From Planctomycetota bacterium (lineage in GTDB: Bacteria > Planctomycetota > UBA1135 > GCA-002748355), in the NCBI GenBank assembly GCA_002685965.1, contig NYZE01000009.1:2882-66261 (forward strand): a stretch of 63,380 nucleotides of DNA, written 5' to 3'. Under the pieces are notes generated by a model. That model saw nothing but the letters and a program-made list of their open reading frames with translations, was not told where the DNA came from and made no database searches. Of the stretch, positions 636-19,822 are shown in pieces. The translations under genes and the position numbers were made by a program. Each line of letters starts with the position of its first letter. The first letter of the stretch is position 1.

Positions 636-1994
636 TCAGTTAGGGACGATCGGCACGACCATCGGCCGCGGGAAGTCACCGCTGGCGCCGCCGAACAAGA
701 CGCGCAGGCCCTGCACGTAGATCGGCAGACCGATCAGCTTGTTGTCGTTCGGCACACCGAACGACAGCTTGAGCTCGCTATTGGCCCCGGAGCCGAGCAC
801 GAACAGGCCCTTTACCAGGTCCAGTTCGAACTGACCCTTCAGGCCGGGCAGCGTGATCGGCGTCTTGGCGAGGCCGAAGCCCATGAACATGGCGCCGACT
901 TCGCGCGGGTTGAGCGGCAGCGTCACTTGGCTGACCTTGCCCGGCCGCACCGCTGGCGCGAGGCGGGTCAACCGCGACAGGTCATAGAGGCGGACGTCCG
1001 CGCCCTTGTTGCGCTGCGGGTGCCCGACATAGACGACCGACTTGCCGTTGGGCGACCAGCGAATGCGATCCCCCATCTGGAAGTAGATGTCACTCAGCAG
1101 CGTCAGGCCACCGCCATCGGCCGGCAGGATCACCGCGCGCGAGGTGCCCAGGCCGGGACGGTGCTCGGGGATCACGATCGACTTGCGATCGCTCGAGAGC
1201 ATCGGCACTCCCCTGACCTGATGCGGCATCCAGCCCAACGGCCTTGCTGTGCCCGTCGCGACTGCCATCTGCCACACCTGGAAGCCCGAGTGGAGCGCGG
1301 CGTAGGCACCCGTGTGCGAGAACACGAAGTTCTTGCCATCGTCGAGCCAGCGCCCGTGGTTGGTCACCGACGCCAACGCTTTGGTGTTGAGCGTGACGAC
1401 GTTCTTCCCGTCGAGGTCCGCCGTGAAGAAGCGATACGTCCACAAGAACTCGGTGGCCGTGATCAGCAGTTTCTTGCCCGACGGATCCACGTCGACACTG
1501 CTGACCCCGGGAATGACCGTGATCAGATCCTCCAGCGCACCGTTGCCGAGCCGAACGCGTATGACAAACGTCTTGAAGCCCACGCGGCGCACGCCGTAGA
1601 CGAAGGTCTGGGTCGGACCGATGAAGAAGAAGTCCGACACGCCCTTGCCATCGAGCTTGGCCAGGCGCCTGGTCGTACCGCCGTCGCGGCTGGTCTGAAA
1701 TAGCTCGTCCTTGGAGAACACGAGCAACGAGGCGCTGTTGGCCTGCCACAGGTAGGTCATTTGCTGACCTGCATCAAAGGCCGTCAGCTCGATGCCACCC
1801 GCGGCTGGCTTGACGTGGAGCTTGCCCAGAGCCTGGTAGGCCACCCACACACCATCAGGCGAGAAGCTCGGGTCGGTATGAGTACGCAAGCCGGCGGTCA
1901 GAACCCGCTCCTGCGCTGCCAGGGAGGCGTTCAGCGCCAAGCCGAGGACCGGCGCCACCAGGAAAAGAATCGCCGTACGGAGGGTGGTTTGCAT
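636..1994 (-). CDS. secreted TolB-like / PD40 beta-propeller repeat protein with the recurrent C-terminal module
   Basis: 452-aa ORF with signal peptide AILFLVAPVLGLALNASLAAQ. PD40-like repeats are DPSFSPDGVWVAY, DVDPSGKKLLI and IRWSPNGKSVVYV. The C-terminal ~100 aa (FMGFGLAKTPITLPGLKGQFELDL...LIGLPIYVQGLRV) match the shared module. Confidence 0.65.
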   Translation of the reverse strand: MQTTLRTAILFLVAPVLGLALNASLAAQERVLTAGLRTHTDPSFSPDGVWVAYQALGKLHVKPAAGGIELTAFDAGQQMTYLWQANSASLLVFSKDELFQTSRDGGTTRRLAKLDGKGVSDFFFIGPTQTFVYGVRRVGFKTFVIRVRLGNGALEDLITVIPGVSSVDVDPSGKKLLITATEFLWTYRFFTADLDGKNVVTLNTKALASVTNHGRWLDDGKNFVFSHTGAYAALHSGFQVWQMAVATGTARPLGWMPHQVRGVPMLSSDRKSIVIPEHRPGLGTSRAVILPADGGGLTLLSDIYFQMGDRIRWSPNGKSVVYVGHPQRNKGADVRLYDLSRLTRLAPAVRPGKVSQVTLPLNPREVGAMFMGFGLAKTPITLPGLKGQFELDLVKGLFVLGSGANSELKLSFGVPNDNKLIGLPIYVQGLRVLFGGASGDFPRPMVVPIVPN

Positions 1995-2217
1995 GCTCGT
2001 TCACCGGAAGGGAAGGCCAGCCCTCTGTATGCTACCCCGCTCGGCAGGTCACGGGTCGACACATCGATGATGTCGACGATAGGCTGTGCCGCGGCTCTCC
2101 CATCGCCCACGGAGAGGTCACGCCGGCAAGGGGAAAACAGCTCCTCCTGCCAGCCCGGATTCCGTAACTACGGACCCGCCGGCGTCTCCCGGCGTGTCTC
2201 GCTATCTACGCCACTCG

Positions 2218-3870
2218 ATGAACCGCCTCCTACTCAATCCACTGCTCGCTCTCTTCCTCCCCATTGCCTCTACGGCCGCCCAGGGAGCCTTCAAGCCCGA
2301 CAAGCTGCCAGAAACGTGGCCCGAAGCGGGTAAGACCAAGAAGGCGGCCAAGAAGCCCGGCGCCACCAAGGACACCGCCGCGTTGCGCAAGCTGCTCGGC
2401 GATGCGAGCGTCACGCTCGTCCGCGCCGGCAAGCTGTTCCTCCCGGGGAAGCTGGGCAAGACGCCCCGCATCGTCGATGGCAAGAAATCTTGGCTGGCCT
2501 ATCGCGCCGGCGGCGTGGTCGGCCTCTTCGCGGCACCGGATCAGCCGCTGGAGATCGCTGCCAACGAAGTCAAAGCCAAGATGCTCGACTTCTCGGACAA
2601 GCCGGACAGCTTTGCCGGGCCAGGGCTGTGTGACGCGGACAGCCGGTGGTTCGTCGCCAGCGACGCCGGCGACCTGTCGGTCGGCGCCAAGGGTCAGCTC
2701 GAAATCTGGCAGGAGGGGTGGAAGGACCTCGTCTTGAAATCGGGCATCACGACGGTCTTCGTGCCTGCCGGCGGCGCCGTCGGCACGTCCGGTCCCGGCG
2801 TGCTGGTCAAGCTGGACCCCGAGAAGGGCGCGACGCAGCTTGGTCGCCCCGGCGCCAGCTACTACCAGCTCGAGCGGCTCGCTACGCGTAGCACCAACCT
2901 GACCCGCGGCGCGGTCGTCAAGTCGCTGCGCAAGGCCCTCGAGGGCGCCAAGAACTACAAGAAGGCCGACGAGAAGTGGAAGAAGGACTTCGAGGCGTAC
3001 CAGAAAAAGCGCAAGGACTTCCTTGCCCACTACAAGAAGAACCCCCTGAAGGCAGGCGAAGAGGTCAAGGCTGCCCCGGCCCGTCCGACACGGCGCGGCC
3101 GCGGGCGCGGCAGGATTCCGAGGACAAAGGAAGAGCTTGAGAAGATGCTTGAGCGCGTGCCGCCGGCGATGCGGGATCGCATCCGCAAGCAGATGGAGGC
3201 GCGCATGAAGGCGGCCGCCGACAAGGCGAAAGCCGACGCCGCCAAAGCCCCGAAAAAGACAGGAGACAAGGCCAAGCCCGACGACAAGAAGAAGGCGCCA
3301 CCGCGGCCCAAGTACCCGAAGAAGCCCAAGCACGACCGCACCAAGGAGGCGTTGCTGCGCATCCTCGACGGCAAGACCGTGCTGCGCATCGAGGCGCACC
3401 GCGCCGCTGAGATCAAGGCCGTGACCAAGCTCGCGCTCGAGTTCAAGCTGCCGCGGATCGTGCTCGTCGGCGCAACGGAGGCCTTCAAGGCCGCCGACGA
3501 ACTGCGCAAGGCAGGCGCCTTGGTCGTGATCACGCCCCAGACCCTGCCGAGACAAGGCATGGACACGCTCGAAGAACACTTCGCGGCGAACGCAGCCAAG
3601 CTCGCCGCCGCCGGCGTGCCGGTCGCGTTCGGCTCGCGAGGCAAGGAACAGGGCGCAATGCTGTCGCTCTACGCCGCTCGCTCGGTCGCGCACGGGATGC
3701 CCGAGGCGCAAGCCCTGCAAGCCCTGACCCAGAACGCGATCGACGCAGCTGGGACCTCGAAGGTCGACACCGGCATGGTCGTGTTCTCGGCCAACCCGCT
3801 GTCGCCCACGGCACACGTGCTCTGCCTGATCCGCGGTAGCCAAGTCGTCCGACTGCAAGGAGACAAGTAG
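2218..3870 (+). CDS. amidohydrolase-superfamily paralogue 1 (degenerate, no HxH), secreted, with a long Lys/Arg/Ala/Pro-rich insert
   Basis: ATG 2218 was chosen for the signal peptide MNRLLLNPLLALFLPIASTAAQG; the ORF opens at 2086. It shares the SGITTVFVPAGG..GPGVLVKL block and the helical C-terminal half with downstream paralogues. The HxH position reads PGLCDADS. A ~140-aa polycationic insert lies at nt ~2925-3350. Stop TAG 3868-3870 overlaps the next GTG. Confidence 0.6.
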   Translation: MNRLLLNPLLALFLPIASTAAQGAFKPDKLPETWPEAGKTKKAAKKPGATKDTAALRKLLGDASVTLVRAGKLFLPGKLGKTPRIVDGKKSWLAYRAGGVVGLFAAPDQPLEIAANEVKAKMLDFSDKPDSFAGPGLCDADSRWFVASDAGDLSVGAKGQLEIWQEGWKDLVLKSGITTVFVPAGGAVGTSGPGVLVKLDPEKGATQLGRPGASYYQLERLATRSTNLTRGAVVKSLRKALEGAKNYKKADEKWKKDFEAYQKKRKDFLAHYKKNPLKAGEEVKAAPARPTRRGRGRGRIPRTKEELEKMLERVPPAMRDRIRKQMEARMKAAADKAKADAAKAPKKTGDKAKPDDKKKAPPRPKYPKKPKHDRTKEALLRILDGKTVLRIEAHRAAEIKAVTKLALEFKLPRIVLVGATEAFKAADELRKAGALVVITPQTLPRQGMDTLEEHFAANAAKLAAAGVPVAFGSRGKEQGAMLSLYAARSVAHGMPEAQALQALTQNAIDAAGTSKVDTGMVVFSANPLSPTAHVLCLIRGSQVVRLQGDK

Positions 3871-5054
3871 TGGTATCGCGACGCATCGCCTTCGGCTTGG
3901 TGGTCGGGGGTGCACTGGCGCTGCTGGCGCAGAGTGCGACTGCACAGAACGCCGCGCCGAACGGACTGCTGATCCGAGCCGGCAAGGCATGGGTCGCTCC
4001 GGGCCAGGCGCTCGTGCGCGCGAGTCTCCTCGTCAAGAACGGCAAGATCGTCGATGCGGTTGCACGTCCGACGAACGACGCCAAAGAGACCTTTCTCGAT
4101 CAAGCCGACAGCGTGCGCGACTTCGGCAAGAACGCGGTGCTGACCGCCGGATTCGTCGACGTGCACACGCACGCCGGCAGCGACGGTGAACTCGCCGAGC
4201 CGGTCGAGTCGTTCACGCCGGAGCTGCGCGCGTCACGCGCGTACGACGCCTGGGCGAGCGCTTGGAAGCGCATCACGGCGCGCGGCGTGACCTCCGCCGT
4301 GCTCGCGCCCGACGACCGCAACCTCGCCGGAGGTATCGCGGCCTTCGTCGACCCCGGACTGGCGGCCGGCAGCGACGCCGACAACTACTTCAAGATGTCG
4401 CTCACCGGGGCGGCCCTCAACCGGGAACGACGGCCGACCAGCCTCATGGGCGCGGCCGACTACCTGCGCGAACGCGCTACCGAGCTACAGAACTTGGCAC
4501 CAGCCAAGATGACGCCGGCGCAGCGCGCCCTCGCCGCAGTGATCGGCGGCGGCCAGTCGGTTGGCATCGCTTGCAGCACCGTACGCGAGATCCACGCCGC
4601 GCTGGACGCGACCACGACCTACCAGCTACGGACTTTCCTGATCCACGCTGACGAAGCCGAAGAGTGCCTCGCGCGCATCGTCGGCGCCAAGGTCCCGGTC
4701 GTGTTGCGTCCGCTCGGCCTGCAGTCGTCACGCAAGCAGCTACGGTTGCCCGGCGTCTTGCAGAAGGCCGGCGTCGCGTTCGCATTCGCGGGCGAGAACG
4801 ACCAGGACAGCGGCCTGCCGGGCCTGCAAACGAGTCTCGCGATCGCGGTCCGACAGGGCATCACTGCCGCCGATGCACTCGCCTCAGTCACCACCCGCCC
4901 AGCTCAGATCGCTGGACAGTCCGAGCGCGTCGGCACTCTCTTCACCGGCCGCGACGCCGACATTCTGGTCTGGTCCGGCGAGCCGTGGGACCTGCGCTCG
5001 CGCCTGTTGGCGGTCATCCGCAACGGCACCATCCTCCACGAGAACAAGCAATGA
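3870..5054 (+). CDS. amidohydrolase-family protein 2 (HxH retained), secreted
   Basis: The GTG start overlaps the previous stop (TAGTG). Signal peptide ALALLAQSATAQ. Motifs are GFVDVHTHAG (HxH at nt 4164-4172) and C-terminal GTLFTGRDADILVWSGEP, typical of COG1228-like amidohydrolases. Confidence 0.8.
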   Translation: MVSRRIAFGLVVGGALALLAQSATAQNAAPNGLLIRAGKAWVAPGQALVRASLLVKNGKIVDAVARPTNDAKETFLDQADSVRDFGKNAVLTAGFVDVHTHAGSDGELAEPVESFTPELRASRAYDAWASAWKRITARGVTSAVLAPDDRNLAGGIAAFVDPGLAAGSDADNYFKMSLTGAALNRERRPTSLMGAADYLRERATELQNLAPAKMTPAQRALAAVIGGGQSVGIACSTVREIHAALDATTTYQLRTFLIHADEAEECLARIVGAKVPVVLRPLGLQSSRKQLRLPGVLQKAGVAFAFAGENDQDSGLPGLQTSLAIAVRQGITAADALASVTTRPAQIAGQSERVGTLFTGRDADILVWSGEPWDLRSRLLAVIRNGTILHENKQ

Positions 5055-6250
5055 GAATCGCTCTAGCTCTCCTGCTGCTGAGCTCGGCGCTCGCCGCTCA
5101 AGGTGACACCCTGGTCCTGCGCGGCGCGCGCGTCTTCACGGGCCAAGGCGACTTCCAGAAGGGGCTCGTTGTCATCGTCAAGGACGGCAAGATCGCGGCA
5201 ATCGGCCGCGACATCCCGGTGCCGCAGGGCGCCAAGGAAGTCGACTGCAAGGACAAGTGGATCACTCCGGGTTTCGTCGATGCCATGACCGCCCTCGGTC
5301 TCACCTCGATGAACGAGAACGAGGAGTCGAACGAAGTCACGCCACAGGTGCGGGCGATCAACGCGATCGACCCCGAGGCGCAGAACTTCAAGCGTGCCGT
5401 CGCTGGCGGCGTGACCACGGCCTACATCATGCCCGGACAGATGAACGTCTTCGGCGGCCTCGGCGTCGTCTACAAGACGGCCGGCAAGAGCCGCGTCGTG
5501 CGCGAAGACGCCGGCGTGCGCATGACGCTCGGGCAGATGCCCGGCTCCGGCAACCGATCGTTCCGCGGCTTCGGTGGCAGCCCGACCAGCATCTACTACC
5601 GCCGGCCGAACAACCGCATGGGTACGATCTGGGAAGTGCGACGCGCGTTCTATGACGCCATGGATGTGCGTGAAACCAACCTCGGCCCACAGCTCGAGCC
5701 GACCGCCGCCCAGCGCGTGCTGATCTCGGCTCTCGACAGGAAGATGAAGGTGCGCACGACCGCGCGCCACGGCCAGGACATCCGCACGGCGCTTCGCCTG
5801 GCAGAGGAGTTCGGCATCGCAGTGATCCTCGACGACGCCACCGAGGCCTACAAGACGCTCGACTACGTCGTTGCGGCAGGCGTGCCAGTGGTCGCCGGTC
5901 CGCCGTCGGTACAAGCCGGCTTCGACGGCTCGACCCCCCACCTTGACACCCTGGCGCTGTTGGCCAGGGCTGGCGTCGAGGTGGCGATTTCCACCGCACA
6001 GCGCCCCGACGCACTGCCACTCGTGCGCGAAGCCGGCTTCGCCGTGCGCGGGGGTATGGACCGTGCCGCAGCGCTCGCTGCGGTGACCTCGGTGCCCGCC
6101 AAGATCCTCGGAGTCGACGCCCGCGTCGGCTCTCTCGACAAAGGTAAGGACGCCGATATTGTTCTTTGGTCGCGGCACCCGCTGAGCCCGTACAGCCGCG
6201 CCGTTCGTGTTTGGGTAGACGGAGTTCCGGTCACGAAACCGAGTAGATAG
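5051..6250 (+). CDS. amidohydrolase-superfamily paralogue 3 (HxH lost), secreted
   Basis: ATG 5051 sits in an ATGA overlap with the previous stop; the longer ORF from 4664 overlaps gene 2. Signal peptide MRIALALLLLSSALAAQ. Motifs are PGFVDAMTAL in place of HxH, GVTTAYIMPG...GVVYKTAGK and GSLDKGKDADIVLWSRHP. Confidence 0.8.
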   Translation: MRIALALLLLSSALAAQGDTLVLRGARVFTGQGDFQKGLVVIVKDGKIAAIGRDIPVPQGAKEVDCKDKWITPGFVDAMTALGLTSMNENEESNEVTPQVRAINAIDPEAQNFKRAVAGGVTTAYIMPGQMNVFGGLGVVYKTAGKSRVVREDAGVRMTLGQMPGSGNRSFRGFGGSPTSIYYRRPNNRMGTIWEVRRAFYDAMDVRETNLGPQLEPTAAQRVLISALDRKMKVRTTARHGQDIRTALRLAEEFGIAVILDDATEAYKTLDYVVAAGVPVVAGPPSVQAGFDGSTPHLDTLALLARAGVEVAISTAQRPDALPLVREAGFAVRGGMDRAAALAAVTSVPAKILGVDARVGSLDKGKDADIVLWSRHPLSPYSRAVRVWVDGVPVTKPSR

Positions 6251-6260
6251 TGACAAGAAG

Positions 6261-7595
6261 ATGATGCGTATCACCCTGCTGATCGCGGCCAACGCCGCTC
6301 TCGTTTCTCTCACCCCTGCACAGCGCGTCGCCGAAGAGATCACCGCCATCAAGGCGGGCACGGTCTGGATCGGCAACGGCAAGACGCTCAAGAACGCCGT
6401 CATCCTGATCAAGGACGGCCGCATCGAGAAGGTCGGGCAGGGCCTTGAGATTCCCTGGAACGCCAAGGTCCTCGACGCGGGCAAGCGTTGGGTCATGCCG
6501 GCATGGGTAAACGCCCACACGTCGGGCGGCATGGACCAGGCGAACGAGAACATCCAGGTCACTCCGTACCTGACCGTGCTCGACTCGGTCGATCCGTCGC
6601 AGGCCTTCTTCGAGGCGAGCCGCCGCTACGGCGTCGGAACCCTGCACGTCGTGCCGGGCAACGCCTGCGCCGTCGGTGGACGCGGCATGGTCGTGCGCCC
6701 CGCGGGCAAGACGCCGGAGCAAATGGCACTCGTGTTGCGCGCGGGAATGAAGATGTCGCTGCAACCCAAGCGCGGTAGCAGCCGCAGCCGGCACATCGCC
6801 GAGATCATGAAGGCCTTCGAGGACGCCAAGGCGCACCGCGCCGAGTGGGAGCGCAAGAAGAAGGAGTTCGACGAGGACAAGAAGAACGGCGCGACGACCA
6901 AGAAGGAGTTCGAGGACAAGATCGACAAGCTCAAGCAGCCCCTGCTCGATCTGCTCGACCGCAAGACCACGGCGTATCTCTACATACCGCGCGCGTCCGA
7001 CGTTCCGGCAGCCCTCGAGCTGGTCAAGACCTACCGGTTGTCGGCGGTGTTCGTGCTCGGCGGCGACTGCTACAAGGCGATCGACCTGCTCACTGCAGCC
7101 CATCGGCAGGCTATTCCGTTGATCCTCGGCGAAACGCTTGAGATCACCGACAAGGACCCGGTCACCGAAGAAGAGAAGATCGTCTGCCCGGCGCGCATCC
7201 TCTACGACGCCGGCATCCCGTTCGCGTTGACGGCGACCGGTTCGGGTGGCCGTGGCTCTCGAGGGCGCGGCGCATCGGGCGGCACTCACCCGGCAATGGC
7301 GATGCCTTGGTGGCAGGTCGCAACCTGCGTGCGCCACGGGGTACCGGAGCGGGCGGCGCTCGAAGCCTTCACCACCATTCCCGCGCGCATCCTCGGTCTG
7401 ACCAAGCGCGTCGGCCAGATCAGCGAAGGTCTCGACGCCAACCTGCAGGTGTTGTCGGCCGCGCCCATGGAACCAGAGTGTCAGGTCGAGAACCTCGTCG
7501 TCGACGGCATACTGATCTACGACCGCAAACGTGACCCGCGCGTCAGTGAACTGACCGGCCAGACCACGACCGGTGCGAGCAAGGAGCAGAAGTGA
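6261..7595 (+). CDS. amidohydrolase-superfamily paralogue 4 (HxS), secreted
   Basis: It starts 10 nt after the previous stop. Signal peptide MMRITLLIAANAALVSLTPAQ. Motifs are PAWVNAHTSGG, the Lys/Glu-rich insert KKKEFDEDKKNGATTKKEFEDKIDKLK, and GQISEGLDANLQVLSAAP. Confidence 0.8.
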   Translation: MMRITLLIAANAALVSLTPAQRVAEEITAIKAGTVWIGNGKTLKNAVILIKDGRIEKVGQGLEIPWNAKVLDAGKRWVMPAWVNAHTSGGMDQANENIQVTPYLTVLDSVDPSQAFFEASRRYGVGTLHVVPGNACAVGGRGMVVRPAGKTPEQMALVLRAGMKMSLQPKRGSSRSRHIAEIMKAFEDAKAHRAEWERKKKEFDEDKKNGATTKKEFEDKIDKLKQPLLDLLDRKTTAYLYIPRASDVPAALELVKTYRLSAVFVLGGDCYKAIDLLTAAHRQAIPLILGETLEITDKDPVTEEEKIVCPARILYDAGIPFALTATGSGGRGSRGRGASGGTHPAMAMPWWQVATCVRHGVPERAALEAFTTIPARILGLTKRVGQISEGLDANLQVLSAAPMEPECQVENLVVDGILIYDRKRDPRVSELTGQTTTGASKEQK

Positions 7596-10300
7596 AACGT
7601 CTGCTTCTCTTTGCGCTAGCGCTGGCGACTTGTCTCTCGGCGCAGCAGCAAACCGTGATTCGAGCTGGCCGCCTCCACGTAGGTGACGGCCGCGTGCTTG
7701 AGAACACGCGCGTGCGCATCCAGGACGGCCGCATCATTGCCATCGAGAAGGACCAAGGACCGCTACCCACCGGCGTCAAGCTTCTGGACCTGCGCAAGCA
7801 GACGCTGATCCCCGGTCTCGTCGCGACGCACACGAGCCTCGCCGCGTTGGACCAGGCGCCCAACGTGTCTCCCGATGTCATCGCGGCCGACCAGTTCGAC
7901 TTCTACAAGAAGTACCCGCGGCTGGTCGCGTCGGGACTGACGACTGTCTACCTCGCGCCGGGCAAGGCGCGGCTCGTGCCGGGTCAAGGCTCGGTCGTGA
8001 AACTGGCCGGCAAGAACCCGGGCACGCGCCTGCTCAAGGAAGGGTCGGCGCTGCACTTCAACCTGCTGCCGGCCTCGCGCCGCTCGATCCCAGCGATCTT
8101 CGAGCCGACTCCGGAGCCAACGTCCGACGACCCGCTGAAGGCGGCACGCCGGCAACGCGGCGCCACGCGGCACAGCCAGATCGCCGTACTCGAGCGGGTG
8201 TTCGACGAAGCCCGCGATGCCGAGCGAACCGAAGGTGGCGAAGGCAAGCGGGCCTACGACCTGACCGCCCTGCGTTCGGTGATGCGCCGCGAGCTCCCGA
8301 TTCGACTCGCGGCATGGACCGCAGCCGACCTCGCGACCGGGCTCGATCTCGTTCGCGAACTCGGCGGCACCGCGATCGTCGAACAGCTGGCGCAACCGCT
8401 GCCGCTAGCCTCACGATTGGCCAAGGAAGGCGTCGCAGCCGTACTGCAAATGCCACTAGAACCAGCGCGCGCAGAGCGTGGCGACTGGCGGCGTGGTGAC
8501 GAGCGGACGCCGCGGCCGACGCCCGATGCGCCCGGCAAACTCGCCAACGCAGGCGTGCGCGTCGCGATCGTGCCACCGACCGACAACGACCTCGATAAGC
8601 TGCGCCTGCTCGCCGGGCTGGCCTGCCGCTGGGGCATGCAGGACAAGGACGCGCTCGCGGCCGTGACCGCGGAAGCGGCGCGGATCCTCGGTGTCGCCGA
8701 TCGCGTAGGCTCGATCGAAGTCGGCAAGGATGCCGACTTCGTCGCGCTGTCGGGGCCGCCGTTCGATGCGCGCAGCCTCGTCGAGCGCGTGATCGTCGAC
8801 GGCTCGACGGTATTCAAGCGTGAACGGCCAAGCGTGCCGTTCGCGATCCGCGCCAAGCGCATCCTCGTAGGTGACGGCACGGCGCACCACGACGCGATGA
8901 TCGTCGTCGCCAACGGCAAGATCGTCGACGTTGGCGCCCACGCCTACGTGCCGGCGGGTTCGGACATCGTCGACGCCGGTGACGCGGTCATCGTGCCCGG
9001 CTTCGTCGCCGCTGCGTCCAAGCTCGGCTTGCACGGCGACACGAAGGCCCGCTTCGCGACTGCGACGACGGTCGACGTCGCCGGCGCGCTCGATTACGAC
9101 GATCCCGCGTTCCGACACGCACTGAAGGCAGGCGTCACGACTCTGTTCGTGACCCCTGGCGACCAAGGGTTGGTCGGACCGCGTGTCTGTGCGGTCAAGA
9201 CCCATGGTAACAAGGACAACTTCGTGGTCCGCAGCGTCACCGCACTGCGCCTGACGCTGTCGGCTGGCGGCGATGCCGGCAAGAAGCAGCTACTCGGCGC
9301 CATCAAGAAGGCCCGCGACTACATCACGCCACCCAAGACGGCAGTGAAGAAGCCAACACCGAAACCGACCGCCACCAAAGAAGATCTCGATCCGATCACC
9401 GGCAGCTGGGAGGGCACGGTAAGTGGCGGCCCGCTGCCGACACCGTCGCCCTTCGACTGCGAGATGAAACTCGAGGGCGACACCGTCAACGCGACGTTGG
9501 TGACGCAGGCGATTCCGGTGCCGATCACGTTCAAGGGCACATGGGACAAGGCCAAGAAAGAGCTGGCCATGAAAGGCGACACGCCGCTCGGCGAAATCAC
9601 CTGCAACGGAACGCTCGTCGGAGTGACCCTGTCCGGGACCATCGCGAGCGCACAAGGGACCTTGCAGTTCACGATGACTCGCGCCAGTGCCGCGGTCGCC
9701 AAGAAGGCCACGAAGAAGGACGAGACCAAGAAGAAGAACGAAGCCCTCGAGCCATGGCGCCCGGTCCTCGCCGGCGACGCGCCGGTCGTTGTCCGCGTCA
9801 GCAGCGACACGGCGGCCTTGGCGGCGATCGCCGCCGTCGCAGTCGAGAGCAAGCTCAAGCTGGTGCTCGCAGGCAGTCCATTGATGCTCGTGCAGAAGGG
9901 CGTGCGTCCACCGAAGGGCACGCCGGTCGGATTCCTGATCGCGACCAACGAGGTCCTCCACGAGTCCAAGGGCAAGAAGCGCAACCTCGCGCAGGAGCTG
10001 GCGCAGCTCGGCTTCGAGGTTGTGCTCGTAACGCGCGCCCAGTTGGGCACGCGTTACCTCCCAGTGCATGCGGCTTGGGCCGTGGCAACGGGTTTCGATG
10101 CACGCAGAGCACTGCAAGCCATCACCGGCACGCCAGCAACCTGCTTCGGCCTCGGTGACCGGATCGGCCGCCTCGTCGAGGGTGCCGATGCAGACTTCGT
10201 GCTGATGTCCAGCGATCCATTCGACCTTCGGTCGCGGATCCTCGGTGTGTGGGTCGACGGCGTCAGGCACGTCGACAACGAGAACAAGGAGGGCCGATGA
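7592..10300 (+). CDS. tandem double amidohydrolase-like protein (two fused modules, HxS and no HxH), secreted
   Basis: GTG 7592 sits in a GTGA overlap, with AAGGAG at 7581-7586. Signal peptide VKRLLLFALALATCLSAQ. Module a has PGLVATHTSLA ... GSIEVGKDADFVALSGPP. Module b has PGFVAAASKLG ... GRLVEGADADFVLMSSDP. A ~100-aa beta-rich insert lies inside module b. Confidence 0.8.
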   Translation: MKRLLLFALALATCLSAQQQTVIRAGRLHVGDGRVLENTRVRIQDGRIIAIEKDQGPLPTGVKLLDLRKQTLIPGLVATHTSLAALDQAPNVSPDVIAADQFDFYKKYPRLVASGLTTVYLAPGKARLVPGQGSVVKLAGKNPGTRLLKEGSALHFNLLPASRRSIPAIFEPTPEPTSDDPLKAARRQRGATRHSQIAVLERVFDEARDAERTEGGEGKRAYDLTALRSVMRRELPIRLAAWTAADLATGLDLVRELGGTAIVEQLAQPLPLASRLAKEGVAAVLQMPLEPARAERGDWRRGDERTPRPTPDAPGKLANAGVRVAIVPPTDNDLDKLRLLAGLACRWGMQDKDALAAVTAEAARILGVADRVGSIEVGKDADFVALSGPPFDARSLVERVIVDGSTVFKRERPSVPFAIRAKRILVGDGTAHHDAMIVVANGKIVDVGAHAYVPAGSDIVDAGDAVIVPGFVAAASKLGLHGDTKARFATATTVDVAGALDYDDPAFRHALKAGVTTLFVTPGDQGLVGPRVCAVKTHGNKDNFVVRSVTALRLTLSAGGDAGKKQLLGAIKKARDYITPPKTAVKKPTPKPTATKEDLDPITGSWEGTVSGGPLPTPSPFDCEMKLEGDTVNATLVTQAIPVPITFKGTWDKAKKELAMKGDTPLGEITCNGTLVGVTLSGTIASAQGTLQFTMTRASAAVAKKATKKDETKKKNEALEPWRPVLAGDAPVVVRVSSDTAALAAIAAVAVESKLKLVLAGSPLMLVQKGVRPPKGTPVGFLIATNEVLHESKGKKRNLAQELAQLGFEVVLVTRAQLGTRYLPVHAAWAVATGFDARRALQAITGTPATCFGLGDRIGRLVEGADADFVLMSSDPFDLRSRILGVWVDGVRHVDNENKEGR

Positions 10301-11700
10301 GGCTTCATCACCTACTAGCCGCGCTGTTGTGCACCGCACCGTTGGCAGCACAGACCGCCGCCGCAAAGGCCACTCCGGCAAACAAGAAGCCGGACGATCC
10401 GCCGCCCTTCAAGATCGACTACGGCAACCGCCCGGCGCCGAAGGACTGCAAGGTCGCCAAGTGGGGTCCTGACGACTACGACTCCCCGGACTACGCCGTC
10501 TACTCCAAAAAGATCCTGACGGTGACCGGCCAGCCGATCATCGACGGCATCGTGCTCGTGCACCGCGGCAAGGTCACGGCCATCGGCAAGCAAGGCGAGG
10601 TCGAGGTGCCCGACGGCTACCAGAAGATCGACGGTGGCGACGGTTGGCTCGTGCCCGGCTTCATCGACCTGCACTGCCACGTGGCGGGTGACGGTTTCGA
10701 CCTCAATGACATGGTCCACCCGACCAACCCGGAGATGCGCACGGTCGACCTCGTGGGTCTCCACCACGATCAGATCAAGCTCGCGATTCAGGGCGGCGTG
10801 ACCTGCGTGCTCTACATCCCCGGTTCGGGCACGAACATGGGTGGCTTCGGCACGCTGACCAAGACCGCCGGCAAGAACGTCGAGGAGGCGCTCGTACGCT
10901 TCCCGGGCAGCCTGAAGATCGCCCAGGCCGGCAACCCTGAGCGCCGCATGGGTGACATGGGCGCTGGCCGCATCGGTATGAACTTCGGGCTACGCTCGAT
11001 GCTGACACGCGGACGGGACTACTACCAAGCGTGGGAGGACTACGACGCCGGCAAGCGCACCGAAAAGCCCAAGTTCCGGGCCGACCTGCATTACCTGCGC
11101 GGGCTGTTCCGTCACGAGTTCCCGTGCAGCGTACACACGCAGATCTACCAGGTGTGCCTTGAGACGTTGCGCTTGCTGCACGACGAACTGGGACTGTGGG
11201 TGTTCATCGATCACGGCACCTTCGATGCCTACCGCATGTCAGGCGAAGCGCGCAAGCGTGGCGTGCCGGTGTGCAACGGGCCGCGCCAGTTCCAACTCGA
11301 CTACGACACCGGCGCGGTGATCGGCAACGCAGCGGCATGGGCGCTGGGCGGCCGGCACGGCTGGGACAAGGACGTCCTTGGCGTCGGTCGTGACGGCATC
11401 TCGATCAACACCGACTCGCCGGTGGTGCCAGAAGAGCAACTGACGGTGCAGGCGGCAATGGCGGTTCGCCTCGGCCTCCCGGACGAGTGGGCGCTGCGCG
11501 GTCTCACGATCAACGCGGCACGCTTCGTCGGTATCGACCACAAGGTCGGCAGCATCACAGTAGGCAAGGACGCCGACATGGTGCTCTGGACAGGGGATCC
11601 GATCGACCCGCGCAGCCACGTGCGCAAGATGATGGTATCGGGGACGATCTACTACGACTGCGATCCAGGTGGCAAGGACCACGGGAAGAGGAGACTGTGA
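10297..11700 (+). CDS. amidohydrolase-family protein 6 (full metal-site motifs), secreted
   Basis: ATG 10297 sits in an ATGA overlap, with AAGGAGGG at 10286-10293. Signal peptide MRLHHLLAALLCTAPLAAQ. Motifs are PGFIDLHCHVAG (HxH at nt 10672-10680), then VHTQ, IDHG, NTDSP and GSITVGKDADMVLWTGDP. Confidence 0.85.
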   Translation: MRLHHLLAALLCTAPLAAQTAAAKATPANKKPDDPPPFKIDYGNRPAPKDCKVAKWGPDDYDSPDYAVYSKKILTVTGQPIIDGIVLVHRGKVTAIGKQGEVEVPDGYQKIDGGDGWLVPGFIDLHCHVAGDGFDLNDMVHPTNPEMRTVDLVGLHHDQIKLAIQGGVTCVLYIPGSGTNMGGFGTLTKTAGKNVEEALVRFPGSLKIAQAGNPERRMGDMGAGRIGMNFGLRSMLTRGRDYYQAWEDYDAGKRTEKPKFRADLHYLRGLFRHEFPCSVHTQIYQVCLETLRLLHDELGLWVFIDHGTFDAYRMSGEARKRGVPVCNGPRQFQLDYDTGAVIGNAAAWALGGRHGWDKDVLGVGRDGISINTDSPVVPEEQLTVQAAMAVRLGLPDEWALRGLTINAARFVGIDHKVGSITVGKDADMVLWTGDPIDPRSHVRKMMVSGTIYYDCDPGGKDHGKRRL

Positions 11701-13160
11701 TGCTCACGCTCCGAGTTTCGCTCGCCCTCGTCGCGGCGCTGTCGGTTCCTTTGCCGGTGACGGCACAGGACAGCGATGTGCTCAAGACTCCGGCCGAGAA
11801 GCTGCTGTCCGAGGCAAAGGCGACGGCATTCATCGGCGTCGACGTCTGGGTCGGGGACGGCAAGAAGAAGCTGACCGGCGTCACCGTGCTCGTCGAGGAC
11901 GGCAAAGTGAAGGAGGTCGGCAAGGACCTTTCGGTGCCGCCATCCTACGAGCGCGTCGTAGGCGGTTGTCTCACGCCAGGCATCGTCATGCTCGGCAGCA
12001 CGGTCGGCCAGTCCGGCTCGCGGCCGGCGGCCGCGAGGTCATTTGTGGTCCGAGGTCGCCGCTTCCGTGGCATGCCGTCGCGCGGCGGCAGTTCGCGCGC
12101 AACCTACACGCCCAACGTGAAAGTCACGTCGAAGCTGCGTCCGATGGACGGCGGCTGGGCTGAGTTCCTCAAGGCCGGCGTGACCACGCACGCGGTCAGG
12201 CCGGTAAAGAGCGGCCTGTCCGGACTCGGCGGCGTCGTGCGCCCGCTCGGTCGCAAGGTCGAAGACATGGTGCTCGCCGACGAGCGCTACCTCTACATCG
12301 GCATGGCAAGCAACACCGCGCACAAGAAGCTCCTCAGGGACAACTTCAAGAAGGCCAAGGAGCTGATCGAGGCGCGCAAGAAGAAACCCGCCGCCAAGAC
12401 CCCGGCCAAGCCAGCTACGAAGCCCGGCGCCAAGCCGACGACGACGCCGAAGGCAGCGACAACGAAGGCGGTGCCGCAGCCCAAGCCGCAGCCCAAGCCC
12501 GGCGGCGACAAGCCGAAGCCGGTACAGAGCAAGCCCACGCAGGCGACACCCACGACGGCTAAGAAGCCGGCCGCACCGAAGAAGAAGCCCGAAGACCCCA
12601 AGCTGGTCGTGCTCGCCAAGGCGATCGAGAAGAAGCTCGCGGTCATGCTGAGCATCAACAGCGGCGGTGACTTGCTTCACGCGCTGGACGCGCTCAGCGA
12701 CACCGACTTCCCGTTGGTCCTCATGCACCAGTTCAGCCGTGGTGCCACAGACACGCCCGACCACATGGTGGCGCAGTTGAAGAAGCGCAAGGTGCGTTGC
12801 GTGCTGTCAGCCGACCTCGGCTACGCCCCCAACACGCGCTACTTCGTCAACCCTATCGCCAAGCTCATGAAGGCCGGCGTCGAGGTCGTGTTGGTGCCGG
12901 GACGGCAACACGAACTCAAAACGCTCTGGTTCCGACTGAACGAACTGGCCCGCGCGGGCATCTCGCGGGCGAAGCTGGTGGAGGCCATCAGCGGTGCACC
13001 GGCCAAGCTCGTCGGCGTACAGAACAGAGTTGGCACGATCGCGAAGGGTATGGACGCCAATCTCCTGCACTTCAGCCGCGATCCATTCAGTCCGGCCACG
13101 CACCTCGTGCGCGTCTACTTCGAAGGACGCGCCGTCAAAGGCGTCTCGACGAAGCACTAA
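11700..13160 (+). CDS. amidohydrolase-superfamily paralogue 7 (HxH lost), secreted, with a ~90-aa Lys/Pro/Ala/Thr-rich linker
   Basis: ATG 11700 overlaps the previous TGA (TGATG), with GGAAGAGGAG upstream. Signal peptide MLTLRVSLALVAALSVPLPVTAQ. Motifs are PGIVMLGSTVG, AGVTTHAVRP...GGVVRPLGRK and GTIAKGMDANLLHFSRDP. The linker is KKKPAAKTPAKPATKPGAKP...KKPAAPKKKPEDPK. Confidence 0.7.
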   Translation: MLTLRVSLALVAALSVPLPVTAQDSDVLKTPAEKLLSEAKATAFIGVDVWVGDGKKKLTGVTVLVEDGKVKEVGKDLSVPPSYERVVGGCLTPGIVMLGSTVGQSGSRPAAARSFVVRGRRFRGMPSRGGSSRATYTPNVKVTSKLRPMDGGWAEFLKAGVTTHAVRPVKSGLSGLGGVVRPLGRKVEDMVLADERYLYIGMASNTAHKKLLRDNFKKAKELIEARKKKPAAKTPAKPATKPGAKPTTTPKAATTKAVPQPKPQPKPGGDKPKPVQSKPTQATPTTAKKPAAPKKKPEDPKLVVLAKAIEKKLAVMLSINSGGDLLHALDALSDTDFPLVLMHQFSRGATDTPDHMVAQLKKRKVRCVLSADLGYAPNTRYFVNPIAKLMKAGVEVVLVPGRQHELKTLWFRLNELARAGISRAKLVEAISGAPAKLVGVQNRVGTIAKGMDANLLHFSRDPFSPATHLVRVYFEGRAVKGVSTKH

Positions 13161-13171
13161 CCGAGAGCATC

Positions 13172-14575
13172 ATGCGATACACGACCCTGTTGACTGCACT
13201 CTGCGCGACGTCGCTCGTCGTCGCCGACCTCTCCGCTCAGCGGCGCCGTGGCCGCCGGGGCGACCGCGGCGGTCCCCCGACCGCCCAGGTCCCGACCAAA
13301 CCGGAGAAGAAGAAGGCAGCGCCGAAGAAGCCCAAGCCTCTCGTCGCCTACACGAACGCGACCGTGCATGTCGGTGACACCACGGTCTACCGGCGCGCGA
13401 CCGTCCTGCTCGAAGGAGACAAGATCTCCGAGGTCGGACCGCAGGTCGAGATCCCGAAGAGGGCGAAGACCATCGACTGCAAGGGGCAGCACATCTGCCC
13501 GGGCTTCTTCATTCTCAAGGGTGTGAACGTCGGCGCTCCGCGTAGCGTGCGCGGCGAGGAGAAGTACGGGGACGGCATCAACCCGTTCCACCCGATGATG
13601 AAGCGGGCGCTCGCGGTCGGCATCACGAGTTACCTGACGATGTCTGCAACGAGCGGCAAAGCGCCGACTGGTTCGTCGGCGGTGATCAAGCTCGTGCCGG
13701 GCTCGATCGAAGGCATCGTGGTCAAGTCGCCGGCGATCCACGCGATGTCAGTGCCGCTCGGACCGGAGGGATGGCGCAAACTCAAGGCGAGCGTCGAGAA
13801 GGCCAAGAAGTACAAGAAGGAACTGGCCGACTACGAGAAGAAAAAGGCCGCCGGCGACAAGGCTGCGAAGAAGCCCAAGGAAGACAAGTCGCTTGCCGCG
13901 CTGCTCTCGGTCATGGACGGCAAGACGAGGCTACAGATCAACTCGTCATCGACACCGATGTTCCGCTCCGGTGGCAGAATGCGCTTCGGCGGATCCGCGA
14001 TGAGCATGCGCGTGCCGCATATCCGTGAGGCGCTGCAGGTCGGCAAGCTCTTTGGTGCCCCGGTCGTGCTCGACAACCCGAGCGAGGCTTGGATCGTCGC
14101 CGACGAGATAGCTGCAGCAAAGGGCGCCTGCGTGCTCCTGCCCCGCTCGCAGGTCGCACCAGATCCCAAGGTCTCCGAGCCAAACGGCTCGACGATCCAC
14201 GCCTGTGCGATTCTGTCCGAAGCCGGCGTGCCAGTCGCCGTCTTGCCCGGTGGCGGCATGTTCGGCAGCGGCATCGGCAACGGCGGGATTCTGGGCCAGG
14301 ATTTGAACACGCCAACACTGGACCCTTGCTTTGCGATCCGCGGTGGCATGGACGCCAAGGAAGCACTGTCCACGATTACGCTCTATCCGGCCATGCTCGC
14401 CGGCGTCGACGACCGAATCGGCTCCCTGGAGGTGGGCAAGGACGCCGACCTCTTGATCCTGGACGGCGACCCGTTGCACTATAAGACCTTCGTACAAACG
14501 GCCGTGGTAAACGGTAAAGTGGTCTACGAGAAGGCCAAGGAGCCCTTCTACCGCCACGTCCGACCGCGGAACTGA
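13172..14575 (+). CDS. amidohydrolase-superfamily paralogue 8 (HxH lost), secreted
   Basis: ATG 13172 lies 11 nt after the previous stop. The signal peptide MRYTTLLTALCATSLVVADLSAQ is followed by a basic RRRGRRGDRGG...KPEKKKAAPKKPKP stretch. Motifs are CPGFFILKGVNVG, EKAKKYKKELADYEKKKAAGDKAAKKPKEDK and GSLEVGKDADLLILDGDP. Confidence 0.75.
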   Translation: MRYTTLLTALCATSLVVADLSAQRRRGRRGDRGGPPTAQVPTKPEKKKAAPKKPKPLVAYTNATVHVGDTTVYRRATVLLEGDKISEVGPQVEIPKRAKTIDCKGQHICPGFFILKGVNVGAPRSVRGEEKYGDGINPFHPMMKRALAVGITSYLTMSATSGKAPTGSSAVIKLVPGSIEGIVVKSPAIHAMSVPLGPEGWRKLKASVEKAKKYKKELADYEKKKAAGDKAAKKPKEDKSLAALLSVMDGKTRLQINSSSTPMFRSGGRMRFGGSAMSMRVPHIREALQVGKLFGAPVVLDNPSEAWIVADEIAAAKGACVLLPRSQVAPDPKVSEPNGSTIHACAILSEAGVPVAVLPGGGMFGSGIGNGGILGQDLNTPTLDPCFAIRGGMDAKEALSTITLYPAMLAGVDDRIGSLEVGKDADLLILDGDPLHYKTFVQTAVVNGKVVYEKAKEPFYRHVRPRN

Positions 14576-14664
14576 CGTCTCTCAAACGACAACCCCGTCA
14601 CGATCCCAGATCCGCGTCCCTGACCCAAGACACCGGGGGAGCCCCCTCAAGGAGCATCCTTAGG

Positions 14665-15084
14665 ATGAACCCAGAGATCATCCGCGAGATCGAAGACATC
14701 CTTCGGTCGATGCGACAGGCCTACAACAACCAGGACATGAAGTCCTACCGCAGCTTCTTCTGGACCAACCCTCGCTTCCTGCACGTCGACTCGTCCGGTC
14801 GGGTCGACAAGGGCTGGGGGGCGTTCGAAGAGGTGCTCGATCAGGAGTTCCGTTATCTCGACAAGGTCGATCTGACGGTGCGTGGGCCCCAGATCCAGGT
14901 GTTTGAGGACAAGTTCGCCGTCGTGTTCGCCGAGTGGCGCTTGGTCACGGTTGACCCCTCGGGACGGGAGCAAGACACGGGCGGTCATGTGACGTATTCG
15001 CTCGTCCGCTTCGGCAAGGACTGGAAGATCGTCAAGACGCACTACGCGAGTCTCGAGCAGGTCCCGAACGAGTCAGGCGGGTAG
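14665..15084 (+). CDS. SnoaL/NTF2-like (DUF4440-like) small protein
   Basis: 139-aa ORF with AAGGAG 11 nt upstream. The pattern MRQAYNNQDMKSYRSFF...FAVVFAEWRLV...VRFGKDWKIVKTH is typical of an NTF2-fold cone. Confidence 0.65.
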   Translation: MNPEIIREIEDILRSMRQAYNNQDMKSYRSFFWTNPRFLHVDSSGRVDKGWGAFEEVLDQEFRYLDKVDLTVRGPQIQVFEDKFAVVFAEWRLVTVDPSGREQDTGGHVTYSLVRFGKDWKIVKTHYASLEQVPNESGG

Positions 15085-15196
15085 AGGGCTTACCTCCGGC
15101 AACTCCCGTCGAGCCAGCGGTCTTCCCAACGCCGGCAAGCAGAGTGATCAAGACCGGCCGTGCGATGCCCCACACCATGGCGACGTCGTAGCCCGC

Positions 15197-16978
15197 CTAG
15201 CCGCCGAGAAACTTCTTGATCGCGTCCGCGAAGGCCGGGGTCACGCTGAAGCTGGCCCTCACGTAGCGATCTCCTTCCTTCCAGAACAGGAAGACCGGAC
15301 TGCCCTTCGCCAGGTCGAAGTGGTTCCAGAGGACCTGCAAGATGAAGGCATCCTTCGACGGGACAAGCACGCGGTTGAGCGGAAGGAGGCCGTCCTTGGC
15401 CTGCACCTCAACCTGGGCGGCACCAATAGAGCTGGCGATCGCAACCTGTCCGGCGAAGTCGGGGCCAACGCGGTAGCCGATGGTCTTCTTCGCCAGCGCA
15501 TGCACTGCCGGTTCGTCGAGGGTTCCATCGAAACCGACCGGCACGGCAACCTCCCGCGTGCTGTCCGGTGCAAGCACTGGCTCGACGTCGGTGCGGCCGG
15601 CGCGGATCCACGCCTTCAGCCCACCGCATACGAGCGCCCGTGTTGCGGGCGGGAACCGAGGGTGTAGAGGGGTGAGCGTCACGAGCTCGCGCGCGCGTTC
15701 GGCGAACGGCGGTTTGGCACACGAGCCAAGCCCCCACAGGAAGCGATACGGGTCACGTCCCGCATCGGCGAGCACGACCGGGTCCCCTGGCTCGAGTTGC
15801 TCGGCGCAGGTGGCCGCGCTGTCGAGCACGGCTCGAACAAAGCCATCGTGCACGCGAAACTCGGCGCGGCGGTCGCGATGCGCGGGCCAGAGGAAGATGA
15901 TCGGCAGCATCGCCAAGACCAGGGTCGGCAGCGGCCGTCCGCGCGTGAAGCGTGCCGCAGCCACTGCCCAAACGGCTAGCACGCCGGCACATGCAAGATA
16001 TGCGAACCGTTGGTCGCCGCTGCGCATTGCCGGCAGGACCTGGGCCAGTGGTCCGAACAGGCCACCGGCGAGCAACAACACACCGGCGAGTTGTCGCTTC
16101 CACGCCGAGCGCACCATCAGGACGCCGAGCAGAGCAAGGACTGCAACTGCCACGAGCTTGCGGCCCTGATCGGGCAGCCCCGGGTTGAGCGCGCCGCCAA
16201 TCGTATTCAGCAAGCCGCCGGTCATGCCAGCGAGATCGAAGCCGGCCAGCGCCTGGAAGCGATAGCCGCCAACGATGTGACCAAGCACGACGAGCCGTAG
16301 CAGCAGGAAGGCGGGGATCAGGAGCAAGTATGGCAACGCCGGTAGCGCTCGCCCGAACAGCGCCGGCGCTGGGCGGTAGCTCGGATGTGGATCGAGCAGG
16401 TCGATACCGAGCGCAAGCAACGGAAAACCTATCGCAGATTCCTTCGTGGCAAGGGCAACGAGGACGGCCGCCCAAACGGGCCAGCGCTTGCCGCCGCGGC
16501 GCAGGCGCAGGTGGAACCACAGCGCGAGCAACAACGGCGGTGCAACGTGCGTGTCGACGCGTCCGGCACCCCAAGCAGCGGACGGAACAACGATCGGGTG
16601 CGCGATCCACAGCAGCGCGACGGCTGCAGCGAGCGCCAGGCCGGTGGCCCCGCCGACGAGTTCACGAAGGAGTGTGAACAGCAGCACTGCGGCGACGCCG
16701 ACCGCGAGTGCGTTCATGAGCAGAAAACCGAACGGATCGGCGCCAAACAACAGGTTGTCGAGCCCAAACGACAGCGTGATGAACGGCCGGTAGAAGCTGA
16801 AGAAGGTCAGGTCGTACTGCGGGCCAGCGAAGTCGGCGAGGCAGTTGGTCAGGTCGGAAGCGTAGCGGATCGCGACGTAGTCATCGGACTTGAGCTCGGC
16901 GCCGCCGGGCCAGTGCAGCGCGAGCGCGGCAGCGACGAGTGCCAAGCAGACGAACGGGACGAGGCGGGGGCCGAACAC
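15197..16978 (-). CDS. polytopic membrane protein, GT-C fold glycosyltransferase (PMT_2/TMTC-like, no TPR tail)
   Basis: 593-aa ORF with at least 10 hydrophobic segments. The N-terminal DDYVAIRYA...FYRPFITLSFGLDNLLFGADPFGFLLMNALAV matches the YRP..LS...D......P.G.H..N signature of PMT_2/TMTC-type mannosyltransferases. The GTG start lies immediately after the upstream stop. Confidence 0.6.
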   Translation of the reverse strand: MFGPRLVPFVCLALVAAALALHWPGGAELKSDDYVAIRYASDLTNCLADFAGPQYDLTFFSFYRPFITLSFGLDNLLFGADPFGFLLMNALAVGVAAVLLFTLLRELVGGATGLALAAAVALLWIAHPIVVPSAAWGAGRVDTHVAPPLLLALWFHLRLRRGGKRWPVWAAVLVALATKESAIGFPLLALGIDLLDPHPSYRPAPALFGRALPALPYLLLIPAFLLLRLVVLGHIVGGYRFQALAGFDLAGMTGGLLNTIGGALNPGLPDQGRKLVAVAVLALLGVLMVRSAWKRQLAGVLLLAGGLFGPLAQVLPAMRSGDQRFAYLACAGVLAVWAVAAARFTRGRPLPTLVLAMLPIIFLWPAHRDRRAEFRVHDGFVRAVLDSAATCAEQLEPGDPVVLADAGRDPYRFLWGLGSCAKPPFAERARELVTLTPLHPRFPPATRALVCGGLKAWIRAGRTDVEPVLAPDSTREVAVPVGFDGTLDEPAVHALAKKTIGYRVGPDFAGQVAIASSIGAAQVEVQAKDGLLPLNRVLVPSKDAFILQVLWNHFDLAKGSPVFLFWKEGDRYVRASFSVTPAFADAIKKFLGG

Positions 16979-19745: not shown

Positions 19746-19822
19746 GCGCCCGTAGCTCAGCTGGATAGAGCACGGCATTCCTAATGCCGGGGTCGCAGGT
19801 TCGAATCCTGCCGGGCGTACCA
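19746..19822 (+). tRNA. tRNA-Arg (anticodon CCT)
   Basis: It folds by hand into a cloverleaf: acceptor GCGCCCG/CGGGCGT, D arm GCTC-AGCTGGATA-GAGC, anticodon arm CGGCA-TTCCTAA-TGCCG, variable loop GGGTC, T arm GCAGG-TTCGAAT-CCTGC, discriminator A and an encoded CCA. Length is 77 nt. Confidence 0.9.

Follow-up and report, generated by a model that had tools for sequence, protein, structure and literature searches.

A cluster of genes on one contig of a Planctomycetota bacterium (GTDB lineage Bacteria; Planctomycetota; UBA1135; GCA-002748355; GenBank assembly GCA_002685965.1, contig NYZE01000009.1, positions 2,882 to 66,261 of the forward strand) raises the question of why a bacterium would keep a whole series of amidohydrolase paralogues side by side when most of them appear to have lost the metal site. 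The window, that is, the whole stretch of 63,380 nucleotides (nt) that was analyzed, has a G+C content of 65% and carries, at positions 2218–14575 (window numbering, as throughout), eight tightly packed plus-strand genes encoding nine amidohydrolase-fold modules. We refer to these genes as g1 to g8. The best overall explanation, to which we assign a probability of roughly 0.55, is that they form an operon of modules of the type represented by Protein Data Bank (PDB) entry 3OOQ, that the products would be exported and would form a hetero-oligomer around a single enzyme, g6, and that dead paralogues have been retained in it.

An initial annotation of the locus from its letters and open reading frames (ORFs) had pointed out that the HxH signature at strand 1 is kept in only two of the nine modules. 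Translation at the corresponding nucleotides gave HTH in g2 (GFVDVHTHAG, nt 4164–4172) and HCH in g6 (GFIDLHCHVAG, nt 10672–10680). The motifs of the other modules also read exactly as had been listed: an HxS in g4 (AWVNAHTSGG) and in the first module of g5 (g5a, GLVATHTSLA), and no HxH in g3 (GFVDAMTALG), the second module of g5 (g5b, GFVAAASKLG), g7 (GIVMLGSTVG), g8 (GFFILKGVNV) or g1 (GLCDADSRWF). This strand-1 pattern recurred family by family in 49–81 orthologues each. The orthologues came from 80 loci around g6 orthologues in species-representative genomes, plus loci from assemblies, and were assigned by best match and position in the array; the taxonomic labels of these relatives are those given by the submitters of metagenome-assembled genomes (MAGs).

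All six positions of the metal site were then scored. The positions (the two His of HxH, Lys, His, His and Asp; H126, H128, K207, H280, H306 and D373 in g6) were mapped by hhalign profile–profile alignment to the g6 family and to 3OOQ, and the mapping was checked by predicted secondary structure rather than by coordinate superposition. In g6 (10297–11700), the ligands are encoded at nt 10672–10680 (H126/H128), 10915–10917 (K207), 11134–11136 (H280), 11212–11214 (H306) and 11413–11415 (D373), all on the plus strand. The later motifs VHTQ, IDHG and NTDSP, which had also been noticed in g6, are present and hold H280, H306 and D373, respectively. The same six residues occur in 3OOQ, and they were invariant in 81 of 81 g6 orthologues, apart from the Asp (79 of 81). 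The strand-5 and strand-6 His were found together in g6 only. As judged from these alignments, g6 alone within the window keeps the full binuclear amidohydrolase metal site, in which carboxylation of the Lys is expected. The predicted catalytic subunit would most likely hydrolyze an amide bond at the binuclear center, by analogy with its cog1228 relatives; the characterized ones are carboxypeptidases, dipeptidases and N-acyl-amino-acid hydrolases.

The picture was different for seven modules, all of which belong to products with a predicted export signal. At the six positions, g1 (2218–3870, 550 amino acids [aa]) has D, R, Y, E, V and R, the commonest orthologue residues being A/L, D, Q, E, E and G. 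The residues of g3 (5051–6250, 399 aa) are M, A, R, T, D and A, with Arg at the Lys position in 54 of 61 orthologues and Thr at β5 in 55 of 61. In g4 (6261–7595, 444 aa), the series is H, S, K, Y, L and a gap or G; H86 is kept in 64 and K164 in all of 67 orthologues, which show no other ligand (Y/F at β5 and L at β6). The gene g5 (7592–10300) fuses two dead modules, g5a (about aa 1–412; H, S, H, A, Q and P, orthologues having mostly D-x-D and Arg) and g5b (about aa 413–902; A, K, R, R, A and a gap, orthologues having F-x-H and Arg, the Arg at the Lys position). Among 64 orthologues of g7 (11700–13160, 486 aa; G, T, gap, S, H and V), none of the positions holds a conserved ligand, the β6 His included, and g8 (13172–14575, 467 aa), which aligned at an hhalign probability of 100%, has K, V, A, N and two gaps. 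Across the array, the strand-4 Lys was thus limited to g6, g2 (K175) and g4, the others having Arg, His, Tyr, Ala or a gap, and the strand-8 Asp of g6 was absent from these seven modules. In the profile alignments, none of g1, g3, g4, g5a, g5b, g7 and g8 showed an alternative conserved set of His or Asp residues filling the metal site. According to the alignments, few or none of the six positions still carry a ligand in these seven, and the suspicion that most modules are pseudoenzymes was borne out to that extent.

The case of g2 (3870–5054) is less clear-cut. Its site appears partly decayed: H99-x-H101, K175 and H259 are present, A234/C235 stands where the β5 His belongs, and E309 replaces the Asp, so that the site scores five of six if E309 is counted as an acidic residue at β8. 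The β5 His is a ligand of the second metal. At β8, MAFFT placed E309 and hhalign placed N310, the register being uncertain by one residue. Among 55 g2 orthologues, the second His was kept in 7, the β6 His in 4 and the Lys in 21; 31 retained none or one of the six ligands, and a single orthologue retained all six. None is left in L002, which at 46% identity is the nearest relative among the genome loci, and of the four database relatives closest to g2, two (P0242 and P0243, 52–53% identity) keep HxH. In contrast to these losses, the slot-2 gene is fully intact (HHKHHD) in the deep-branching arrays L079 and L081, and g2 was therefore probably catalytic in the ancestor. The widespread loss of ligands indicates that the metal site is not under selection in the g2 family; we read this as a site that has been freed from selection and has decayed to differing degrees across lineages, the window copy being among the best preserved. 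The description of g2 as intact had to be given up on these grounds, and g2 is a borderline case as a pseudoenzyme. Full catalytic competence of the window copy is improbable in our estimation; weak remaining binding of one metal is possible.

A structural model of g2 made with AlphaFold2 (AF2) from only 16 sequences had a mean predicted local distance difference test score (pLDDT) of 70.9 and was used only for strand positions outside residues 100–193. In this model, the residues mapped to ligand positions sit at the C-terminal end of their strands, as would be expected in this superfamily, and Foldseek returned 3OOQ as the best match of the model (template modeling [TM] score 0.67), in line with the sequence match between g2 and 3OOQ (E=1.1e-17). 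The AF2 model of g5 had a mean pLDDT of 90.2 and a predicted TM score of 0.70 and contained two amidohydrolase-fold modules, in accord with the two stretches found by Pfam; Foldseek aligned it with 3OOQ at a TM score of 0.82 (normalized to the target).

The same kinship held for the whole array. Matches to Pfam Amidohydro_1 (PF01979) or Amidohydro_3 (PF07969) were obtained for all eight genes, those of g1 and g7 being below the curated cut-off, and every family aligned with the g6 family at an hhalign probability of 100% over 375–410 columns (405 for g1). On these profile matches, all nine modules are assigned to the amidohydrolase superfamily, with its (β/α)8-barrel and composite β-sandwich fold. 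None of the eight proteins reached the curated cut-off of a named NCBIfam family (39–99 bits versus 225–500), the families tested including HutI (TIGR01224), the Caulobacter Xaa-Pro dipeptidase (NF051886), NagA and PhnM. The best partial matches were XaaProDiPepCaul (Caulobacter Xaa-Pro dipeptidase) and hutI (e.g., 70 versus 500 bits), and since such scores lie far under the equivalog cut-offs, g6 is not a member of those specific families. The match of g6 to 3OOQ by phmmer was strong (E=6.5e-46), and g3 was the paralogue nearest 3OOQ (36% identity). The modules are accordingly placed, by sequence comparison, in an uncharacterized 3OOQ branch of the superfamily and not among HutI, the prolidases or any other named family. 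In all-against-all profile comparisons, g6 paired with g6b, a paralogue from related arrays that is described below, and the other modules were about equidistant from each other at 20–30% identity, with g3 the most central; the identities among array paralogues ranged over 20–36%. Automatic annotation labels these genes "amidohydrolase family protein" or "imidazolonepropionase-like."

Relatives of g6 were found in 226 species-level Planctomycetota genomes (uncultured, marine and freshwater), and g6 was 55–77% identical across Planctomycetota MAGs. Dozens of the 80 fetched loci shared the order g1 to g8, no locus lacked an internal dead gene, and g5 was always a two-module fusion. In the commonest form of the array (28 complete loci and partial ones), g6b is added between g6 and g7, giving nine genes and ten modules. 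This second intact paralogue is 41–43% identical to g6, keeps the same six ligands (HHKHHD) in 47–48 of 48 orthologues and was seen in loci L013 and L017–L077. The window and its closest relatives have nine modules and no g6b; g6 and g7 abut with a 1-nt overlap at position 11700, so that no remnant of g6b is left there. In one complete 8 Mb chromosome (OZ245006, loci L001/L015), g6b is fused to g7. In a distant array (L083, 10001–16746), nine modules are spread over seven genes, two of which encode a double module; exactly one module, directly after a double-module gene, has HHKHHD, and another is g4-like, with HxS and Lys. In every array examined, one or two modules are intact, against seven to nine that are dead. 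We looked across the loci for an inverse relation between the presence of g6b and retention of the g2 site, and no clear pattern was observed. The proposed layout of a catalytic core with dead paralogues therefore recurs in dozens of genomes and in a distant array; what did not hold was the count of two catalytic subunits in the window, where only g6 is complete and invariant.

The loss of catalytic ligands, together with the low identity of 20–30% between paralogues, might suggest that the genes without HxH are functionless duplicates on their way to becoming pseudogenes. To compare like with like, the ratio of nonsynonymous to synonymous substitution rates (dN/dS) was calculated by NG86 and summed over five genome pairs in which all genes were comparable (three pairs for g6b); values from all pairs above 70% identity were set aside because the genome pairs differ per gene. 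The summed dN/dS values were 0.23 for g1, 0.23 for g2, 0.22 for g3, 0.20 for g4, 0.17 for g5, 0.20 for g7 and 0.16 for g8, close to the 0.13 of g6 (g6b, also intact, gave 0.27). Because NG86 probably underestimates dS at 65% GC, these values are upper bounds. Reading frames were intact in 49–71 orthologues per family. Coverage of the family core fell below 85% in 20 of 557 orthologue ORFs, of which about 8 were truncated at contig ends and about 11 were of a divergent slot-1 type, which has a full-length reading frame and matches g3, g5 or g2 best rather than g1. Orthologues persist down to about 30% identity, the distant array type included, and the g5 model is confident. Decay in progress is hardly credible in the face of these results, which instead mark g1, g3, g4, g5, g7 and g8, as far as sequences tell, as pseudoenzymes kept by purifying selection.

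How the products might work together is suggested by the layout of the genes. The junctions from g1 to g8 measure −1, −4, +10, −4, −4, −1 and +11 nt; overlaps of 1 or 4 nt at five of these seven suggest that the proteins are made in fixed proportions. All eight proteins begin with a short charged part, a hydrophobic stretch and an A-x-A/Q-type site, resembling a Sec signal peptide, and would be exported. Modules are also found fused, namely in g5, in g6b-g7 of the one genome and in the two double-module genes of L083, which hints at association. The entry 3OOQ ("amidohydrolase from Thermotoga maritima MSB8," a structural-genomics entry) contains ten identical chains, and a preprint from 2026 includes it, as a dihedral homomer, in a benchmark limited to complexes with 10–30 chains; taken together, chain number and benchmark label point to what is apparently a D5 homodecamer. 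The commonest array encodes ten modules, equal to the chain count of 3OOQ. Based on these observations, we propose that the array products assemble into one hetero-oligomeric particle descended from a 3OOQ-like homo-oligomer, apparently a D5 decamer. In this particle, the structural positions would be taken by eight modules that are dead or nearly so and that may shape or gate access to the active site, and one dimer position would be catalytic, occupied by g6 with itself in the window and by g6 with g6b in most relatives. A scan of positions 1800–15400 for promoters and terminators yielded counts equal to the shuffled expectation and so did not inform the operon boundaries.

Two other readings have to be weighed against the single assembly around g6. 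In one, g2 as well as g6 would have a working metal center, which gives two catalytic subunits beside seven dead modules. The five of six positions retained by the window g2, the HxH in half of its closest database relatives and the intact slot 2 of L079 and L081, by which two active subunits are probably ancestral, all speak for it, as does the fact that most crown-group arrays hold two intact modules, there g6 and g6b. The missing β5 His, the Glu in place of Asp and the erosion of ligands over the g2 family, complete in L002, make this unlikely for the window. The other reading dispenses with a complex: the products would be independent exported proteins, either ligand- or polymer-binding or non-canonical enzymes, co-regulated with one hydrolase for the same pathway. 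Each product having its own signal-peptide-like N-terminus fits that reading, as do family-specific conserved polar residues and module-specific inserts that may be binding elements (an eight-strand β domain in g5b and Lys/Pro-rich loops in g1 and g7). However, independent proteins would not readily explain why order and full complement are strictly kept over deep divergence, with no internal member lost, why most junctions overlap, or why modules were repeatedly fused; the closest structural relative, moreover, would itself be a large homo-oligomer. We consider this reading rather improbable, if worth keeping in mind. A retained set of non-interchangeable paralogues, overlapping junctions, recurrent fusions and apparent export are together better explained by one assembly than by independent redundant enzymes.

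Several points nevertheless tell against a single assembly around g6. Operon linkage, overlapping junctions and a few fusions can only suggest interaction, and that 3OOQ is a decamer is itself deduced from how many chains the entry contains and how a benchmark labels it. With nine modules rather than ten, the window and the basal arrays agree with a decamer only on the assumption that g6 takes up two positions. Signal peptides were called by eye and for the window proteins only, and the g2 model is of low confidence over residues 100–193. Furthermore, polar residues are conserved at former ligand positions (His and Lys in g4, Asp-x-Asp in g5a, Arg in g3 and g5b) and could reflect independent binding or non-canonical chemistry. 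The most specific version of the proposal, a fully asymmetric exported hetero-decamer in which 9–10 paralogues each take a fixed D5 position around one catalytic dimer position (g6-g6 or g6-g6b), is accordingly put forward as a tentative possibility.

Three of the dead modules carry inserts. That of g1 (aa 323–380, nt 3184–3357) is a low-complexity stretch rich in Lys, Pro and Ala, and that of g7 (aa 209–312, nt 12324–12635) is long and rich in Lys, Pro, Ala and Thr. Both share their barrel position with a short Lys-rich helical insert of 3OOQ. The insert of g5b (aa 604–700, nt 9401–9691) follows barrel strand 4 and is modeled as an all-β domain of eight strands (pLDDT >90) with a conserved DPITGxWE motif; a Pfam search with it returned no significant match, and the model suggests that it could be a small ligand-binding barrel. 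The dead subunits of the window are basic (isoelectric point [pI] 9.1–10.3, with a net charge of up to +44, versus a pI of 7.0 for g6). Charge was dropped as a functional clue, as the median pI of orthologues is 5.6–6.9 (g1, g3, g4 and g5) and other genes in the window are basic too.

Directly 3' of g8, and outside the region first annotated, lies a plus-strand NTF2-like gene (14665–15084, 139 aa; SnoaL_3/DUF4440 by Pfam, AtzH-like) without a signal peptide. It occupies this place in 61 fetched loci at 47–82% identity, and the cluster probably includes it as one more conserved member. On the other side, a PD40/TolB-like β-propeller gene (636–1994, minus strand) is divergent from g1, and a weakly similar gene (23–34% identity) occurs at the same position in nine fetched loci. 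Downstream of the array are a tRNA-Arg(CCT) (19746–19822, plus strand), an S15 X-Pro dipeptidyl-peptidase gene (22041–23891, minus strand) and an AceK isocitrate dehydrogenase kinase/phosphatase gene (25165–26925, minus strand; E=5e-107), and a planctomycete-type cytochrome gene (PSCyt1) lies nearby in the window. Long antisense ORFs across the array are ordinary artifacts of high GC content.

Eukaryotes offer well-known cases of dead enzyme paralogues that act as obligatory partners; among bacteria, such cases are rare. In dozens of the loci fetched here, the 12 kb operon is complete; eight of its nine to ten modules appear to be without a site and are nevertheless under purifying selection, and automatic annotation overstates the catalytic repertoire of the locus about eightfold. 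If the assembly is real, the array would be a clear natural experiment in the change from a homo-oligomeric enzyme to a hetero-oligomer of non-interchangeable paralogues, with g2 representing living intermediate stages, and would offer the first functional handle on the uncharacterized 3OOQ branch. If the particle should prove to be a hetero-decamer, the history of subunit death would be readable from its genes, with g2 still alive in basal lineages, halfway dead in the window and entirely dead in other lineages. Literature searches on planctomycete amidohydrolases and pseudoenzymes, on cog1228 and on 3OOQ returned no account of a bacterial operon of eight to nine such paralogues around one active member, and the docking benchmark was the only mention of 3OOQ.

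Among known systems, 3OOQ resembles the array most closely. Every module tested matched it best, in sequence as well as in fold, with other Foldseek matches reaching TM scores of at most about 0.6, and it shares with the array a Lys-rich helical insert after strand 4 and, with g6, the HxH/K/H/H/D ligands. It differs in being the product of a single gene with ten identical chains, whereas the array comprises 9–10 diverged paralogues, mostly without a site and with signal-peptide-like N-termini. The cog1228 enzymes (the Cc2672 Arg/Lys carboxypeptidase 3MTW, the Sgx9260 prolidases 3FEQ, 3N2C and 3MKV, HutI and the ochratoxinase ADH3) come next after 3OOQ among the structural matches. They belong to the superfamily as well and have the same arrangement of composite domain and barrel, but are homo-oligomers in which all subunits are active, unlike the mostly dead subunits of the array.

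Pseudoenzymes known elsewhere in the amidohydrolase superfamily include the dihydropyrimidinase-related proteins (CRMP/DPYSL) and, in some aspartate transcarbamoylase complexes, the inactive PyrC' chain, which resembles dihydroorotase. Like the dead modules, they keep the fold and have lost the metal ligands, and their roles are oligomeric and non-catalytic; CRMPs were among the weak sequence matches of g6. They belong to different subfamilies, however, and represent one dead paralogue or a small dead family rather than a bacterial operon in which eight different dead modules accompany a single active paralogue. A conceptual analogue is found in the β ring of the eukaryotic 20S proteasome, in which three of seven subunits are active. 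A further one is provided by the trypanosomatid "prozyme" partners of AdoMetDC and deoxyhypusine synthase, which are dead paralogues acting as obligatory partners (PMC5201418, PMC3663545). In these systems, as proposed for the array, a homo-oligomer has been replaced by a hetero-oligomer that retains dead paralogues; their folds are unrelated, and assembly is demonstrated there, whereas here it is suggested by the genes. A hetero-decamer encoded by this array would be a single-operon bacterial counterpart of paralogue hetero-oligomers in the style of the proteasome or CCT.

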